Assembly: GCA_035631035.1 (NCBI GenBank) | Contig: DASQJL010000096.1 | Coordinates: forward strand, 1,234-65,233 | DNA: 64,000 bases | From: Candidatus Binatia bacterium | GTDB taxonomy: Bacteria; Eisenbacteria; RBG-16-71-46; SZUA-252 | Direction of reading: 5' to 3' | In this document: positions 2,496 to 57,625 of the stretch, one piece after another | Layout: each line of letters starts with the position of its first letter | Position numbering within the stretch: the stretch's first letter is position 1 | Notes under the pieces: model-generated | Told to the model about the DNA's origin: nothing | Seen by the model: only the letters and a program-made list of their open reading frames with translations | Database searches by the model: none | Translations under genes and position numbers: made by a program

Positions 2496-3194
2496 CTAAT
2501 CGTCGTCGTCGCTGTCATTGTCCTTCGAGCGGTCGTTGTCATGATCGTCATCGTGCCCGTTCGAACGCTGCAGTTCCTGCCGCAGGGACTGGATCTCCTG
2601 CCGGAGCTCCCGGAGCTGGTCCCGGAGGTCCCGGATCTGCTGCTGAACGTCCCGGTCCTCCATCTGGGGCGGCATCGGGTGGTCGTCGTTGCTCGGGAAC
2701 CGGAGGTTGGGCATGCCCATCCCCGGCATCCCCTGCGGCCGCTCGCCCAGCTGGACGTTGACCGTGCGGAGCGAGCCCGAGCGCCAGAGCGTGATGCGGG
2801 TCCGGCTGCCCGGCGAGAGCCCGCGCACGACCTTGATCAGGTCCTGGGAGCTTTCGATCTTCTCGCGGTCCACTTCCGTGATCACGTCGCCGCGGCGGAC
2901 CCCCGCCCGATCCGCGGGACTGTCCTCCTCGACGCGGCTGACCAGGGCGCCCTCGTCGGTCGGAAGGCTGCGCGCCCGCTGGAGCGCGCGCGTGACGTCC
3001 TGGACCTGCACGCCCAGATAGCCGCCCTGCGCGTCGTCGCCGCCATAGATCCGGACCGTGCCCTGCCGGCCGTTGTCGGTATTGTCGTCGTCGTCGTCAT
3101 CCGCCCGCGCCGCCACCGGGGCGGTCAGGAGGGTGAGCGCCAGGCCGAGAGCCGCGAGGCTCCAGACCGGCCGCATGAACCGAGGCAATCTCAT
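2496..3194 (-). CDS. Secreted PDZ-domain protein with poly-Asp N- and C-terminal tracts and a coiled-coil
   Basis: Signal peptide MRLPRFMRPVWSLAALGLALTLL. PDZ core (GALVSRVEEDSPADRAGVRRGDVITEVDREKI). DDDDDDN and DNDSDDDD tracts. Heptad-like QQQIRDLRDQLRELRQEIQSLRQELQ. Confidence 0.7.
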   Translation of the reverse strand: MRLPRFMRPVWSLAALGLALTLLTAPVAARADDDDDDNTDNGRQGTVRIYGGDDAQGGYLGVQVQDVTRALQRARSLPTDEGALVSRVEEDSPADRAGVRRGDVITEVDREKIESSQDLIKVVRGLSPGSRTRITLWRSGSLRTVNVQLGERPQGMPGMGMPNLRFPSNDDHPMPPQMEDRDVQQQIRDLRDQLRELRQEIQSLRQELQRSNGHDDDHDNDRSKDNDSDDDD

Positions 3195-51617: not shown

Positions 51618-51821
51618 TCAGACCGGAGTCACGTTGGCGGCCTGCTTTCCCTTGGGCCCCTCCACGATCTCGAACTCCACCACCTGCCCCTCGGACAGGG
51701 TCTTGAAGCCCTCACCCTGGATCGCCGAGTAGTGGACGAAGACGTCCTCGCCGCCGGCCTGCTGGATGAATCCGAATCCCTTGGCCTCGTTGAACCACTT
51801 CACCGTTCCCCGCTTGCGCAT
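51618..51821 (-). CDS. cspA: Cold-shock protein (CspA family)
   Basis: [15 protein letters not shown] (RNP1) and VFVHYSAI (RNP2). Confidence 0.9.
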
Positions 51822-52198
51822 CGAGCGTTCACCTCCCTCCGAGGGACGCGGAAGCGCCCCTTGCGCCGCGCCGAATACGCCAGGAGCCGTCGCGGGGCAC
51901 AGCCGTATCCCCCCGCGACGGCTCCGGACCGTCGGCCAGCCTAGTCGTCTTCGGTGCGTCCTTCGGATTTCGCTTCAGCGTTCGTGCACCGGGTCGTGCT
52001 TTGAATCGTGCCGCGTGCCAGCGCTGAAGCCGGATGACGAGTGCGAGGCAACACTGATGCAGGATTTCAAAGCGTTGTCCTGCCGGGCCGCGCCAAGGGC
52101 CCGGACGCGACGGACCGTAGACCCGCCCTCCGGGGCTGTCAAACCGAAAGTTTCGACTTCGAGCGGACCCACCGGCGCGCGCGTATCGCGATGCGTCT
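51822..52198 (-). promoter_or_regulatory. Long (about 300-370 nt) csp upstream region / 5' leader
   Basis: A TTGACA-17-TACGGT candidate lies near 52120-52160 on the minus strand. The length is typical of cold-shock leaders. Confidence 0.3.
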
Positions 52199-53893
52199 TC
52201 AACGCGTCTGGAGGGAGCGCAGACCGCGGGCGGCGCCCTCCCACGCGATGCGCCCGTCGGTGCGGAACTGGTAGCGCGGATGGCGGCGCAGGAAGGAAAC
52301 CGCGGCCTCGTTCTGGAAGACCCCCGTGGGTTCTGCGGGACCCGCCTTCCGGAAGAGGGTATAGCCGGCGCCCCCTTCGTAGAGGAAGTCGATCGTGGCG
52401 ACCCGGTAGATGCGGTCGTCGTCGAGCGGATGGCCGTTCACGCGGATGTCCGACGCGTAGTCGCCGCTGATCGAGAACCGCACGCCGCTCACCTGGGCGA
52501 AGTCGCTCTTGCCCAGGCGCCGCGCCGCGAAATCCAGGAGCCGCCGGAGGTCGTCGCCGCGCATCGGCACGACGACGATCGTGTTGTCGAAGGGGAACGT
52601 GGAGTAGACGTCCGCCACGGTGACCGGCCCCCGCGGAATCGGAGCGCGGATCCCGCCCGTGTTCATGATGCCGACCTCGGCGCCCGCCGTCTCGCGAAGG
52701 ACCTCGGCCGCGAAGTTCCCGATCGCGGTCTCCACGTCGTCGCGCTGCGGGGTCGGCACCCGCACGCTCGATTCGTACACCGTGGCCCCCATCGCCACGG
52801 TCACCGAGTCGGCCACCGGCCGGAGGAGCGCCGCGATTGTGGAATCCTCGCCATCCTGGGGCCGCACCCGCAGGAGCTCGTAGGAGAACCCGGCGGGCCG
52901 CCCCTGGGCGAGGTAGAGGACGCTTCGTCCGACACGATCGCCCCAGGCCCCGGTCTGCACGATCGGCACGCCCGCGAGTCCGGGAGCCGTTCCGTTCCCG
53001 GCGAAGAGCGGCTCGTCGAGGCGCGTGTGGCTGTGCCCCCCCACGATGAGGTCGATGCCGGGGACGCGCCGCGCGAGCTCCTGGTCGGCGTCCACGCCGA
53101 GGTGCGTCAGGGCGATCACGTAGTCCGCCTGCCCGCGAAGGAGGGGCACGAACCATCGCGCGGCCTCGATCGGATCGGAGACGGCGACGCCCCGGTTGGC
53201 GCTGATGCGCACGATGTTGACGAGGCTCCCCGTGGTGAGGCCGAGGATCGCGATCCGCTTCCCGCGCCACGAGCGGATGAGGTAGGGCTTGGCCAGGAAC
53301 CGGAGCGACGCCGTGCTCGACACGGGCGCGCCCCCGATCCAGCGCGCGCCCCGGCGGACCTCGGGGGGCGGAGCGTCTCCCAGGCTCGACGCCCAGCTGC
53401 TGTCCGCCGCGGCGAACACGTTCGCGCTCAGGACCGGATACTCGGCGAGCGGGCGCAGGGCGAGCCACGCCGCGGGGCCGTCGTCGAGGTCGTGATTGCC
53501 GAGGGCGACCGCGTCGTAGCGCATTGCGGACATCGCGCGGGTGTCGGGGACGCCGCGGAACAGGTTATAGGCGGGCGTCCCCTGGACGATGTCGCCCGCG
53601 TCCAGCAGGAGCAGGTCCGGGTCGCGCATCCGCTCGCGCTCGATCAGCGCCGCGCGCGCGGCCGCTCCGCCGACCAGCGTCGCCTCGCTGCGATGGAAGG
53701 GGAGCAGATGGGAGTGCACGTCGTTCGAATGGAGCACGACGAGCGAGTCCGCGATGGGGCGCGGGGGGGATTCCGGCAAGGCCGCGCCCGGCGCTGCCGC
53801 GGCAATCAGGGCCGCGGCGGTCAGCGCAAACCCGAAAATTAAGCAGCGATACGGAGTTCCGGCTGCGGGCAAACGCCTCAAATGGCTTGACAC
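52199..53893 (-). CDS. Secreted bifunctional metallophosphatase / 5'-nucleotidase (UshA-like)
   Basis: Metallophos motifs (LHSNDVHSH, LDAGD, GNHD, GGHSH) and a C-terminal 5'-nucleotidase domain. Confidence 0.8.
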   Translation of the reverse strand: MSSHLRRLPAAGTPYRCLIFGFALTAAALIAAAAPGAALPESPPRPIADSLVVLHSNDVHSHLLPFHRSEATLVGGAAARAALIERERMRDPDLLLLDAGDIVQGTPAYNLFRGVPDTRAMSAMRYDAVALGNHDLDDGPAAWLALRPLAEYPVLSANVFAAADSSWASSLGDAPPPEVRRGARWIGGAPVSSTASLRFLAKPYLIRSWRGKRIAILGLTTGSLVNIVRISANRGVAVSDPIEAARWFVPLLRGQADYVIALTHLGVDADQELARRVPGIDLIVGGHSHTRLDEPLFAGNGTAPGLAGVPIVQTGAWGDRVGRSVLYLAQGRPAGFSYELLRVRPQDGEDSTIAALLRPVADSVTVAMGATVYESSVRVPTPQRDDVETAIGNFAAEVLRETAGAEVGIMNTGGIRAPIPRGPVTVADVYSTFPFDNTIVVVPMRGDDLRRLLDFAARRLGKSDFAQVSGVRFSISGDYASDIRVNGHPLDDDRIYRVATIDFLYEGGAGYTLFRKAGPAEPTGVFQNEAAVSFLRRHPRYQFRTDGRIAWEGAARGLRSLQTR

Positions 53894-53915
53894 AAGTCGC
53901 GCCTCTCCCTATAGT
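53887..53915 (+). promoter_or_regulatory. Strong sigma70-type promoter TTGACA-17nt-TATAGT
   Basis: Consensus -35 and a near-consensus -10 with 17-nt spacing. It drives the zinc-ribbon/csp operon and is divergent from the 5'-nucleotidase gene. Confidence 0.55.
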
Positions 53916-54040
53916 TACAGTTGGCAAGGCTCAGTCGGTCCGTGCTCGGCGGAGTATCGGCAGCTACGAGTGACAATGCAGTCATCTCCCCAACTCCCGT
54001 CATGCTTCCGTACGCCAAAAGCCCACGGTTCCCGCAGGAG

Positions 54041-54079
54041 GCCCCCACGGTACTCACCCGGTGGGGGCGTTTTTGTTTC
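54041..54079 (+). terminator. Intrinsic-terminator-like hairpin (GCCCCCAC...GTGGGGGC) plus GTTTTTGTTTC inside the 5' leader, 30 nt before the start codon
   Basis: Seen in sequence. The orientation is + only. Candidate attenuator or 3' end of a leader-derived sRNA of about 150 nt. Confidence 0.5.
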
Positions 54080-54109
54080 ATCCAGCAGTGAGTGCGTCTC
54101 GGAGGCTTC

Positions 54110-54436
54110 ATGGCTGACGTGGACAAGGTAATCAAATGTCGCGACTGTGGTGAAGAGTTCGTCTTCACGGTTGGGGAGCAGAACTTCTACAAGGATCGTG
54201 GCTTTCAGCACGAACCCACGCGGTGCCGCCGCTGCCGGGACGAGAAGAAGCGCGCCTCCGGCGGTCCGGTATCGGCTGCCCCGGTGTCGAACGCGGCCCC
54301 TCGGGAGTTCCACGAGGCCGTCTGCTCGTCCTGCGGCCAGATGACGCAGGTTCCATTCCGTCCCACCCCGGGAAAGCCGGTATACTGCAGGGACTGCTTT
54401 CAGAACGTCCGGTCCACGCGAGGCATGAACGTCTAG
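54110..54436 (+). CDS. Zinc-ribbon protein with two CxxC-x17/18-CxxC clusters
   Basis: [15 protein letters not shown]...CRRCRDE and CSSCGQM...CRDCFQN. Confidence 0.7.
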
Positions 54437-54506
54437 GCGAACGACCTTTCACCCACGTCATACCCTCATCCCGATCGTTTTCACGCCGAAAGGAGGGGCC
54501 CCGAAC

Positions 54507-54719
54507 TTGAGACACCGCGGCTCAGTCAAGTGGTTCAGCGAGTCCAAGGGTTACGGGTTCATTCAGGAGGATTCGGGAGAAGAGTTCTTCGTCCATCATT
54601 CCGCGATCGTCGCCGACGGCTTCCGCACGCTGAACGAGGGAGAGGTCGTCGAGTTCGACCCGACGGAGGATCAGAACCGAGGCAAGCAGGCCACCAACGT
54701 GGTCCGCGTGCAGCACTAG
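54507..54719 (+). CDS. cspA: Cold-shock protein (CspA family), probable TTG start
   Basis: [23 protein letters not shown] and FFVHHSAI. Confidence 0.85.
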
Positions 54720-54859
54720 AAGGCCGGCGGGGGAAGCCCCGCCGCACGACGACGATGGTCCAGGACCCCGGCGCGCTCCCGCCGGGGTTCGTTTTTTGGC
54801 GCGGATAGAGTAGAGTTTTCGGGTACCCCCAACCATCTCGCCGGAGGATTCGAAACCGA

Positions 54860-57625
54860 ATGCGCTTTGCTCCCATCGCCCTGACCACGGCTGCCGTCCT
54901 GATCGCGACCGCCGCCCTGGGACCCGCCGGTCCCGCCGTCGCCGCGCCGAACCTGATCCGCACCCTTCCCAACAAGATGACGGTCATCGTCCGGGAGAAC
55001 CGTTCGCGCCCGCTCGCCACGGTCCAGGTCTGGATCGACGCGGGAAGCCGCGACGAGACCCGCAGCGAGCGGGGGGCCGCCTCGGTGCTCTCGTATCTTC
55101 CGTACGAGGAGACCTCCGCCCGGAAGCGCGGCGAAGTCCACAAGGAAGCGGAGTCCTTCGGCGGCACCCTGGGAAGCGAGTCGGGCTACTCCAGCATCAT
55201 CTACAACATGACGGTGCCCGCGCGGTACCTGAGCCGGGCGGTCGATATCCTGAGCGACGCCGTCCTCCATCCCTCCTTCAACCAGTACACGCTGGAGCAG
55301 TCGGTGGCCAAGGCGCGCCGGGAGTCCCGCGGCGTCCTGAGCGCGGCCGGCGGCGTCAGCCTGAACACGCTCCGGGAGTCGCTCTACGGCGACACGCCTC
55401 CCGGGACGCCGCTCCATGCGCCCGAGCTGGAGGTGGCGGCGCTCACGCTCCCGATCGTCCAGCGCTACTACAAGGAGAACTTCGTCGCCGACAGGATCAC
55501 GGTGGTCGTGGTCGGCGACATCGAGGCCGAACCCGTGGCCGATCAGATCGCGGCGGCCTTCAAGGACGTGCCCACCGGCAAGTCGCGCCCGCACCCGCGC
55601 GTCGCCCCGCCCAAGGAGCTCAAGGATCCCATCGTGCGCTCGGTGCCCAACCCGCCCGACGCCGACGGCTCGGTCGTGGCCGCGGGATTCCGCGCACCGC
55701 TCTGGGGCACCGCCGACGCAACCGCGCTCGACGTCCTGCTCGCCGTGCTCGTCGACGCTCCCGGCTCGCGGCTCGAGCGCCGGCTGCGCGAGGGGGGCAA
55801 CGACTTCGGAGCGGCCGCGGCCCAGCGCTCGTTCGGACCCGATCCGGGGTCGGTGGCCCTGGTCCTCTCGGCAGACCCCGCGCGGATGCCCGATGCGGAG
55901 GGGATCCTGGTTCAGGAGATCGAGAAGATTCGCGCGCAGCCGGTCACGGCCGAGGAGTGCCAGGCCGCCATCCGCTCCATTCTCACGCGCGAGCTGATGT
56001 CGCGCTCGGAGCTCTGGGGACTGGGGCGCGCCACCGCGCTCGCCTATTACCAGGGGCGTCCCGGCGCCGACGAGGTGTACGCGCAGCGCGTGAGCGCGGT
56101 GCGGCCCGAGGACCTGTCCGGAGTCGCGCGCAAGTATCTCGACTGGAAGAACGGCGCCGTCGTCGAGATGATGTCTCGGCGCACGGCCGACAGCCTCGGC
56201 ATCGCCAAGGAGTTCCCGAAACGGTTCCAGGAGAAGCTCTCGCTGTACCAGGGCACCTACCGCAGCGGCCCGCTCGCCACGGCGAGCACCGATGAGGAGC
56301 GCCGCGCGCGCATCGACCAGCCGCTCGCTTCGATCTCCCGGGATCCCTTCGATGCGGGGCGCGGCCGCGTGGAGCGCGCCAGGCTCGCGGGCGGCATCCG
56401 GCTCCTGACCGGCCAGGACCGAAGCGCCCCCGGCGTGACGGTGGCGGTCTATCTGAACGGCGGCGTGCGCTGGGAGAACGACAAGAACAACGGCATCACC
56501 TCGCTCGTCCGCGAGACGCTCTTCAATACGAACGACCCCAAGCGGAACGGCCTCGCCTACCGGCAGTCGCTCTCCCTCCTGGGATCGTTCACGCCCTACC
56601 AGGATCGGGACATGTGGGGGGTCTCGCTCGCGGTGCCCTCGTCCGACTGGAAGGAAGCGCTCAACCGGATCGGCGCGATGATGTCCCACCCGGACCTGGA
56701 CTCGGTGACGGTGGATGCCACGCGGATCCTGCTCCTCACCGCCCTCGACAAGTGGATGGAAGACGACGCGGCCCAGCGGCAGCGGCTCATCTTCGCGACG
56801 AAGTACCAGGTGAGCGGCTACCGGCTTCCCGGCGTGGGGAACAAGGTGAACCTCATCTCGCTTCCGACGTCGGCGATCGCGGCCTATTACCGGAAGTTCG
56901 TGGTGAAGCCGAACCTGTTCGTCGCGGTCTTCGGCGACGTGAACCCCTCCGAGGTCGGTCCCGCGGTGGAGGAGGCGTTCCGCGACGTGAGCGCGGGACC
57001 CTTCAACCCGGGCGAGCCGCCCATGGATCTGCCGTTCCCCGGCTTCCGCGAGAAGTGGGAGCTGGGCGCGGGCTCGCTCACCACCATTCAGCTCGCCTTC
57101 AACGGCCCCCCGGCAAACAGCCCGGACATGCCCATTTTCTACGTCGTGAACTCGCTGCTCTCGGGACCGTACGGCTGGTTCCAGAAGTACGTCATGGCCG
57201 AGCCGACGGCGCAGAGCGCGAACTCGATCGTGGCGCAGGCGATCGACGAGTCTCCGATCATCGCCTCGCTCACCATCGGCGGCTCGGTGGAGGAGGAGGC
57301 GATGGTCAAGCTGCTCTTCCGGCAGTTCAAGAAGGTCGCCGGGATGGAGCTGATCGGCCCCGATCTGGATCAGGACCTCCGGAACGCGAAGACGCACGCC
57401 ATCGGCAGCTTCTACGGAACGTTCACGACGAATACGTCCCGCGCCTTCCAGTGGGCTCGCGCCGACCTGTTCGGGCTTCCGCCCGACGACCTGCTGGCGC
57501 TCCCCTCCAAGATGGACGCGGTGACTCCGGGCGATCTCCTGCGGGTCGGGACGCGCTACTTCCAGCGCGGAGACTGGGAGAAGGCGCCGTACGCCATCGC
57601 GGAGACGCGGCCCGGCGGCTGGTAG
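54860..57625 (+). CDS. Secreted M16-family (insulinase-like) protein with two M16 units, both lacking the HxxEH zinc site
   Basis: Signal peptide. M16 fold pattern, but GAASVLSYLPYEET and the second unit have no His-x-x-Glu-His. Predicted non-catalytic. Confidence 0.75.
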   Translation: MRFAPIALTTAAVLIATAALGPAGPAVAAPNLIRTLPNKMTVIVRENRSRPLATVQVWIDAGSRDETRSERGAASVLSYLPYEETSARKRGEVHKEAESFGGTLGSESGYSSIIYNMTVPARYLSRAVDILSDAVLHPSFNQYTLEQSVAKARRESRGVLSAAGGVSLNTLRESLYGDTPPGTPLHAPELEVAALTLPIVQRYYKENFVADRITVVVVGDIEAEPVADQIAAAFKDVPTGKSRPHPRVAPPKELKDPIVRSVPNPPDADGSVVAAGFRAPLWGTADATALDVLLAVLVDAPGSRLERRLREGGNDFGAAAAQRSFGPDPGSVALVLSADPARMPDAEGILVQEIEKIRAQPVTAEECQAAIRSILTRELMSRSELWGLGRATALAYYQGRPGADEVYAQRVSAVRPEDLSGVARKYLDWKNGAVVEMMSRRTADSLGIAKEFPKRFQEKLSLYQGTYRSGPLATASTDEERRARIDQPLASISRDPFDAGRGRVERARLAGGIRLLTGQDRSAPGVTVAVYLNGGVRWENDKNNGITSLVRETLFNTNDPKRNGLAYRQSLSLLGSFTPYQDRDMWGVSLAVPSSDWKEALNRIGAMMSHPDLDSVTVDATRILLLTALDKWMEDDAAQRQRLIFATKYQVSGYRLPGVGNKVNLISLPTSAIAAYYRKFVVKPNLFVAVFGDVNPSEVGPAVEEAFRDVSAGPFNPGEPPMDLPFPGFREKWELGAGSLTTIQLAFNGPPANSPDMPIFYVVNSLLSGPYGWFQKYVMAEPTAQSANSIVAQAIDESPIIASLTIGGSVEEEAMVKLLFRQFKKVAGMELIGPDLDQDLRNAKTHAIGSFYGTFTTNTSRAFQWARADLFGLPPDDLLALPSKMDAVTPGDLLRVGTRYFQRGDWEKAPYAIAETRPGGW

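Follow-up and report, generated by a model that had tools for sequence, protein, structure and literature searches.

A structured 5′ leader RNA upstream of a zinc-ribbon/cold-shock protein operon, conserved in Candidatus Eisenbacteria and a candidate for a new RNA family

Introduction

What do a near-consensus promoter and, downstream of it, a terminator-like hairpin do in the leader of an operon that encodes a zinc-ribbon protein and a cold-shock protein (Csp)? The question is raised by a 64,000-nucleotide (nt) stretch of contig DASQJL010000096.1 (assembly GCA_035631035.1) – hereafter 'the window', by which we mean the whole stretch analysed – where such a leader precedes a zinc-ribbon gene (zf) and a cold-shock gene (csp). 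A preliminary description of this DNA had proposed either that transcription into the operon is conditionally attenuated at the hairpin, or that a separate leader small RNA (sRNA) of about 150 nt is produced. Our analysis favours a different answer, to which we assign a probability of roughly 55%: that the leader is an uncatalogued cis-regulatory RNA of ~190 nt, specific to Candidatus Eisenbacteria, whose input is likely to be temperature, Csp proteins or both, and which, in the lineage of the window, contains a leaky terminator. It probably controls the amount of the zf-csp pair that is made. The hairpin is better viewed as one module of this larger conserved leader, and the leader itself makes a strong candidate for a new family of RNAs.

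The operon and the region that controls it are laid out as follows:

53886-53897, + strand: extended −35 block CTTGACACAAGT, part of an 11/12 promoter match, with the −35 hexamer TTGACA at 53887-53892
53910-53915, + strand: −10 hexamer TATAGT of the same promoter match
53921-54109, + strand: 5′ leader RNA of the zf-csp operon, structured and conserved, an unclassified motif matched by covariance model R1
54101-54112, + strand: Shine–Dalgarno (SD) sequence GGAGG (54101-54105) and ATG (54110-54112) of zf, invariant in all leaders
54110-54436, + strand: zinc-ribbon protein of 108 amino acids (aa), zf_Tbcl + zf_Tbcl_2 (CxxC-x17-CxxC)
54507-54719, + strand: cold-shock domain (CSD) protein of 70 aa, second gene of the operon

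A leader conserved in front of the zinc-ribbon gene

The promoter matches the sigma-70 consensus at 11 of 12 positions (TTGACA at 53887-53892, a 17-nt spacer and TATAGT at 53910-53915, all on the + strand), and it is the only site with a match of at least 11/12 on either strand of the 64-kb window; judged from promoter geometry only, transcription would start at ~53921-53923. The hairpin, folded with its flanks, reaches −19.9 kcal/mol, and a hairpin of −12 kcal/mol or below with an immediate T-tract occurs at just two sites in the window (70% GC, both strands): at 54041-54079 and at the terminator behind csp (54763-54800), both within the zf-csp unit. Canonical intrinsic terminators seem, on this showing, to be rare in the genome and concentrated on the zf-csp operon. 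As the energy of the whole-leader fold is ordinary (z = −0.19), it is the rarity of promoter and hairpin in the window, together with their conservation, rather than fold energy, that argues against a chance arrangement.

At this level, the preliminary description is borne out. The promoter at 53887-53915 and the strong hairpin with its U-tract at 54041-54079 are where it had placed them, and its account of the SD and ATG of a zinc-ribbon gene followed by a second csp is accurate in coordinates and substance. It was also right that the hairpin is terminator-like on the + strand only: on the minus strand there is no U-tail, and the upstream neighbour is a divergently transcribed 5′-nucleotidase gene.

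The zf protein has hundreds of homologues, and a scan of species-representative genomes with it returned 80 loci, of which the top 28 are of the Candidatus Eisenbacteria type and 52 belong to other phyla. All 28 Eisenbacteria-type loci carry, over the 225-245 nt 5′ of the zf start, sequence clearly homologous to the window; at two of them, the zf protein is 99-100% identical to that of the window. Metagenome contigs were scanned with a degenerate 20-mer DNA pattern, which gave mostly chance matches; among the ~120 matches listed, at least 16 are true leaders, and all 16 precede a zf gene. Six further distinct leaders came from look-ups of close protein relatives. The set used below comprises 49 distinct leaders: one from the window, one from each of the 28 Eisenbacteria-type loci in genomes, 14 that the pattern scan found in metagenomes and the six from contig look-ups. 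In 49 of 49 cases, the leader stands directly 5′ of a zf_Tbcl gene.

Related leaders share one succession of elements: CTTGACACAAGT, a variable spacer, a TATAgT-like −10 hexamer, the box GGCAGCAACGAGYGGAAUGCAGUGA, a CUUCCG-like element, a GC hairpin, a U-rich linker, GGYGAG and, finally, CGGAGG and the ATG. Along the leader, conservation is highest in the box, in the CUUCCG element, in the hairpin and from GGYGAG to the SD. At the promoter, the 12-mer CTTGACACAAGT is found at an equal distance in nearly all related leaders, and the promoter spacer varies. Identical in nearly all 49 leaders, this 12-mer forms an inverted repeat (CTTG-ACA-CAAG) within which the −35 hexamer falls; conservation of the five bases past the hexamer hints at an operator or at an extended form of the promoter.

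Covariance model R1, for which all 49 leaders were used, recovers the window's leader at 53921-54112 (119 bits, E = 8e-28) as its sole match there, and finds exactly one copy per Eisenbacteria locus and no match in the 52 zf loci of other phyla. Searches of the window with the −35 block, the conserved box and R1 gave no second copy of the leader. The same boundary is seen in gene content: csp follows zf directly, after a gap of 50-80 nt, wherever a fetched Eisenbacteria locus reaches past the end of zf, and no csp neighbour is found at the 52 zf loci of other phyla (Rokubacteria, Bacillota, Chloroflexota). Across the phylum (L001-L028 and the metagenome loci), the gene order 5′-nucleotidase (divergent), leader, zf, csp, M16 peptidase is conserved. 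Five of the contigs with Eisenbacteria-type loci (L004, L005, L006, L008 and L022) are labelled Omnitrophota, Hyphomicrobiales, Binatia, Dormiibacterota and Acidobacteriota, one of them with a zf protein 100% identical to that of the window; these are probably mis-binned contigs of metagenome-assembled genomes.

A scan against Rfam 15 matched no known family: nothing reaches the gathering threshold anywhere in the window, RF01766 (cspA) included, and when matches up to E ≤10 were admitted on 53000-55500, the sole one inside the leader was that of the hairpin to sR084, which scored 17.7 bits where the threshold is 95.

Structure of the leader

The structural elements discussed below lie at these positions in the window:

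53959-53985, + strand: conserved box GGCAGCUACGAGUGACAAUGCAGUCAU, which holds the 5′ strand of helix P2 (GGnAGCAACGAGnGGAA) in most relatives and is degenerate in the window
54004-54015, + strand: GCUUCCG-U-ACGC, an anti-SD-like element complementary to CGGAGGC (54100-54106) and GCGU (54094-54097)
54022-54033, + strand: CCCACGGUUCCC, identified by alignment as a remnant of the P2 3′ strand (consensus CCCUCGnUUGCU)
54041-54068, + strand: GC-rich, terminator-like hairpin P4 (G54041-C54068), with a stem of 8+2 base pairs (bp) and the loop UACUCAC
54051-54057, + strand: P4 loop UACUCAC, putative 5′ strand of a pseudoknot, pairing with 54088-54094
54069-54079, + strand: tail G-UUUUU-G-UUU-C, a U-tract if P4 terminates, or the pseudoknot linker L3
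54088-54094, + strand: GUGAGUG, putative 3′ strand of the pseudoknot, separated from the SD by 6 nt

Global folding says little about this RNA: RNAalifold on the full MAFFT alignment gave only fragmentary structure, and the minimum-free-energy folds of the individual leaders disagree among themselves. Four candidate helices (P4, the pseudoknot, P2 and P3) were instead placed on the 49-sequence alignment, A4, and their pairs counted; 86% of the cells hold standard pairs, compared with 43-52% when the partners are slid by 1-3 columns. An alignment-independent check compared the duplex energy of each leader's own strands with that of strands swapped between leaders (self-versus-cross permutation). 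In this check, co-evolution supports three of the helices – P4, the pseudoknot and P2.

The best supported is P4 (permutation z = −5.9), formed in the window by GCCCCCAC and GUGGGGGC plus GG/CC, with a bulge at G54060. The preliminary description had made conservation of this hairpin in relatives a test of its proposal: it is kept in 49 of 49 leaders, with 90% of cells paired and compensatory changes at four pairs. Its loop can in turn pair with a segment a few bases before the SD. For this pairing, CUCRCC with GGYGAG, 97% of cells are paired, one position alternates between GU (20 leaders), GC (16) and AU (12) and never shows A-C, and the permutation test gives p = 0.0014; in the window, 54051-54057 and 54088-54094 can be read as six Watson–Crick pairs and one G-U pair. 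Complementarity maintained through sequence change in this way points to an H-type pseudoknot. The distance from hairpin to ATG is nearly fixed, at 36-45 nt, the single exception being L146 at 52 nt. This intermediate relative (2047-2254, − strand) keeps the consensus box and has a duplicated U-rich tract, CATTTTTGTTTCGTCATTTTGTTTCGTCC, after the hairpin.

P2 is a long-range helix of GGnAGCAACGAGnGGAA with UUCCCUCGnUUGCUnCC, with 81% of cells paired (permutation z = −2.8, p = 0.0024). Most lineages keep it; in the sub-lineage of the window (the window, L001, L004, L201 and L204) it has decayed. There, most of the window's pairs are non-canonical in the covariance model, and the duplex has an energy of −7.8 kcal/mol, compared with about −20 kcal/mol elsewhere.

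Other pairings found no support. The arms of a further hairpin, P1, gave no co-evolution signal in the permutation test, and none of nine other candidate pairings tested in this way favours its own partner. Those rejected for lack of co-evolution include GGAG(1) with the anti-SD, GGAA or AGUGA of the box with the anti-SD region, the 5′ arm of P4 with the SD, and the 5′ end of the leader with either arm of P4. Two long invariant stretches, GCAACGAG and AAUGCAGUGA, are left unexplained by the helices found.

Is the hairpin a terminator?

In the window, the elements of an intrinsic terminator are present: a stable GC-rich stem-loop (54041-54068) and a U-tract within ~2 nt of the stem (54069-54078). 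Across the leader family, the second of these is inconsistent. In relatives, the 10 nt after the stem hold 5.2 U on average, where the background frequency is 0.23 per base. At least 5 U are present there in 29 of 41 relatives; six (L007, L013, L021, L134, L152 and L160) keep the hairpin with a tail of only 2-3 U in 10 nt. Most canonical U-tracts belong to the lineage without P2, which also has the best one. This distribution suggests that the structural module is the older part and that termination was added to it in one lineage. In the lineage of the window, the hairpin is probably a leaky intrinsic terminator.

These data bear directly on the first of the two original proposals, in its classical form: a conditional attenuator, in which the hairpin has been conserved as an intrinsic terminator, temperature or Csp antitermination decides on read-through, and the rest of the leader is secondary. 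The window hairpin does run directly into GUUUUUGUUU, closely resembling the operon's own 3′ terminator – the only other site of its kind in 64 kb – and U-enrichment after the hairpin is common in relatives. Csp proteins, moreover, lower termination at intrinsic terminators (PMC9765468, PMC8307031), with CspD acting on the SgrS terminator (PMC9765468) and CspB/CspD studied in B. subtilis (PMC8307031). Against this stand the six relatives that keep the hairpin with few U, and the failure of permutation tests to find a segment that co-evolves with either arm of P4, as a conserved antiterminator should. For the 5′ end of the leader and the P4 5′ arm, a leader's own pair is even weaker than mismatched pairs (z = +2.9). 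A model of the nascent transcript predicts that, in the window, the 5′ end pairs only weakly with the CCCCC arm, a pairing that is not conserved, and that the hairpin has a probability of ~1.0 once the 3′ arm has been transcribed. Since the covarying partner of the loop lies downstream of the U-tract, the pseudoknot cannot influence a decision to terminate.

Control by a leader peptide fares no better as the switch: seven leaders have no open reading frame (ORF) of at least 8 codons, ORFs elsewhere differ in position and length, and the leader alignment contains many indels that are not multiples of three. An AUG-CAG-UGA mini-ORF within the box was considered as well and set aside, as it is not conserved. 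Of the proposed conditional attenuation, then, a leaky terminator in the lineage of the window remains plausible, the U5GU3 tail resembling the 3′ terminator of the operon; the simple attenuator fits poorly, with its U-tract lost in several lineages and neither a conserved antiterminator nor a leader peptide to operate it. We regard it as an unlikely account of the leader as a whole, albeit the likeliest of the rival explanations.

The second proposal, an independent trans-acting sRNA of ~155 nt running from promoter to hairpin, with zf-csp expressed by incidental read-through, can draw on the consensus promoter and terminator-like hairpin, which bound a unit of ~150-158 nt. SRNAs derived from 5′ untranslated regions (UTRs) by premature termination are known in other bacteria. 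Yet the 30 nt between the tail and the ATG leave no room for a second promoter, and the U-tract is missing in several lineages. More telling still, conservation and covariation run across the supposed 3′ end – past the hairpin to the SD, through the pairing of the loop with GGYGAG – and the element is never found away from a zf gene, whether at a genome locus or among the true metagenome leaders listed. These last two points make it the weakest of the rival explanations, and we consider it highly improbable.

Pairing at the ribosome-binding site and a proposed mechanism

In the cis-regulatory reading that we prefer, the promoter would drive the ~190-nt structured 5′ leader of the zf-csp operon, and the P4 loop would pair with GGYGAG a few bases 5′ of the SD to form an H-type pseudoknot. 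This fold beside the ribosome-binding site, together with a pairing of the CUUCCG element with the SD, would set the level of translation. In the lineage of the window, the hairpin and its U5GU3 tail would also stop a fraction of transcripts, acting as a leaky terminator and leaving a ~155-nt RNA as a by-product. By analogy with cspA-type leaders and Csp antitermination, the input is likely to be temperature, the amount of Csp-type RNA chaperones, proteins that melt structures of this kind, or both.

In the pairing with the SD (helix P3, CUUCCG-like with CGGAGG), the proportion of paired cells is 84%, with an outer pair of GC in 12 leaders and AU in 7; within the CUUCCG element, the CC and G positions are invariant or nearly so. 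In the window, GCUUCCG and CGGAGGC form a helix in the minimum-free-energy fold, and thermodynamic models predict a paired SD in nearly all leaders (median unpaired ~0.02), mostly with this element. When the SD is forced to be single-stranded, the anti-SD finds no consistent alternative partner. On these models, the conserved CUUCCG is suggestive of an anti-SD. An extension of the helix into the flanks was tried and rejected, as a leader's own flanks (−8.79 kcal/mol) do no better than those of other leaders (−8.78 kcal/mol), and masking of the SD as a statistical signal was likewise dropped, with shuffled leaders almost equal and no dependence on temperature.

Several observations count against the reading just set out. 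The permutation tests show no co-evolution for the core or the flanks of P3, and the SD is masked no better than in dinucleotide-shuffled C-rich leaders (0.09 unpaired compared with 0.14 in shuffled ones). Nested-fold models, which ignore the pseudoknot and folding kinetics, predict masking that stays level over the range 5-45 °C. The permutation tests themselves carry no correction for phylogeny, and in the L005/L209 lineage the hairpin loop is different and the complementarity for the pseudoknot is shifted or unclear. The link to cold shock, finally, comes solely from the CSD gene, and many Csp paralogues are not cold-induced.

Some of the same observations would be expected of a leader that does not regulate at all, whose structures stabilise a highly expressed mRNA (as a 5′ stem-loop does against RNases) or provide a U-rich standby site for ribosomes, without any switch. 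SD masking that is no better than in shuffled leaders and insensitive to temperature in the models agrees with this, as do the lack of alternative conformations with covariation support and a strong promoter that suggests constitutive high expression. What speaks against it is the extent of the conservation: some 190 nt, a pseudoknot at the SD and a fixed distance from hairpin to ATG, maintained among loci whose proteins are 65-75% identical, go beyond the usual mRNA stabilisers, and a leader would pay a price for a terminator-like element that served no purpose. A purely passive role therefore strikes us as very unlikely.

The unexplained invariant stretches GCAACGAG and AAUGCAGUGA, along with the several helices and the pseudoknot, would suit a leader in which the box, P2 and pseudoknot bind something – the zinc-ribbon protein or Csp, in autoregulation of the kind seen for ribosomal-protein leaders, or a small molecule, as in a riboswitch – and in which binding decides whether the SD or the terminator is available. 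It is in keeping with this that zf_Tbcl genes of Rokubacteria have a different conserved leader of ~220 nt and no csp, as if the zf gene itself were the regulated target. However, no riboswitch or protein-binding leader in Rfam is matched, RNA binding by the zf protein is hypothetical, a gene content of zf plus csp is unlike that of typical riboswitch regulons, and the loss of P2 in the lineage of the window would be poorly tolerated by a strict binding pocket. We think this explanation quite doubtful, if less so than a passive leader.

A more ambitious formulation deserves slightly more credit, though it too is unlikely: that the leader represents a new class of RNA sensor, pseudoknotted and specific to Eisenbacteria, which detects temperature directly or has the zinc-ribbon protein, Csp or a ligand as its binding partner, controls both premature termination and the initiation of translation, and reveals a role for zf_Tbcl. 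If this were true, the role of the zf_Tbcl proteins would come to light, including those of Rokubacteria, which carry their own, unrelated conserved leader.

Relation to known leaders

Leaders of cold-shock genes are best understood in enterobacteria, where the leader of cspA mRNA is a thermosensor that also responds to CspA (PMC6386945, PMC9947658). Like the enterobacterial cspA 5′ UTR (RF01766), the leader described here is a conserved, structured RNA of ~160-190 nt that serves a CSD gene and follows a strong promoter; for the one as for the other, translation is thought to depend on structures close to the SD, with Csp proteins as a plausible input in trans. The two differ in almost everything else. 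There is no similarity in sequence or structure (Rfam, E ≤10); in the Eisenbacteria operon the zinc-ribbon gene comes first and csp second; the zf-csp leader contains a terminator-like GC hairpin with a pseudoknotting loop; and nested-fold models predict no temperature response for it. It thus provides an unrelated conserved example from an uncultivated soil phylum, equipped with a defined promoter, a hairpin backed by covariation and a pseudoknot by the ribosome-binding site.

A second comparison is with Csp antitermination, which E. coli CspA, CspC and CspE mediate at intrinsic terminators. Here, too, genes are preceded by a GC hairpin with a U-tract, and the organism has Csp proteins of its own; those encoded in the window are most similar to CspE-type antiterminator models, albeit below the equivalog cut-off. 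In contrast to the zf-csp leader, the known cases act on the terminators of other genes, and the U-tract is not a family-wide property of the leader. An autoregulatory terminator in the leader of a csp operon would constitute positive feedback.

Leader platforms that join a terminator with SD masking, or that place a pseudoknot next to the ribosome-binding site, include the SAM-II and preQ1-II riboswitches and the ribosomal protein S15 leader. As in these, the loop of a hairpin in the zf-csp leader is predicted to pair just 5′ of the SD, amid several helices and invariant unpaired nucleotides. Unlike them, it matches no catalogued class, and its association with zf_Tbcl and csp does not resemble a riboswitch regulon.

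The make-up of the leader changes within a single phylum, the lineage of the window having lost P2 and gained a proper U-tract, which may amount to a shift from translational towards transcriptional control. For the zf_Tbcl / CxxC-x17-CxxC family, being tied to a cold-shock protein in one operon is a first functional lead. Searches by sequence found no relative of solved structure for the zf protein, and in the literature on zf_Tbcl homologues we found only archaeal work, in which the proteins from Methanosarcina bind zinc (PMC12704099).

Further features of the locus

Two additional features of the window complete the description:

54763-54800, + strand: intrinsic terminator that ends the zf-csp operon, an 11-bp stem followed by GUUUUUUGG
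51621-51821, − strand: the first csp of the window

On the other side of the leader, the 5′-nucleotidase ORF (− strand) has as its first codon a GTG that falls within the −35 hexamer of the zf promoter (53893), and an SD-like GGGAGAGG lies on the opposite strand within the spacer of that promoter. The divergent genes evidently share a very compact control region, and with such a layout the promoter of the nucleotidase must lie antisense within the leader DNA.

The zf_Tbcl genes of Rokubacteria/Methylomirabilota (L029-L043) are preceded by a different conserved leader of ~220 nt, located ~230 nt upstream of position 3001 and marked by the blocks CACACGCCGCTGAGCGAGCCGCTCG, GGGAGGTGAGACCGC and GTCAAAGGAGACGCACGGACCATG. 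The block GGGAGGTGAGACCGC includes a perfect extended SD-like sequence, GGAGGUGA, ~75 nt before the real start and with no start codon behind it. R1 gives no match to this leader, and no csp lies downstream.

The leader of the first csp is unrelated in sequence to that of the zf-csp operon. This gene (51621-52150 with its upstream sequence, − strand) has an upstream region of its own, ~300 nt long, with a TTGACA near 52143 and a perfect 17-bp GC inverted repeat at ~51927-51880 that has no U-tract behind it; the region may be a second, different csp leader.

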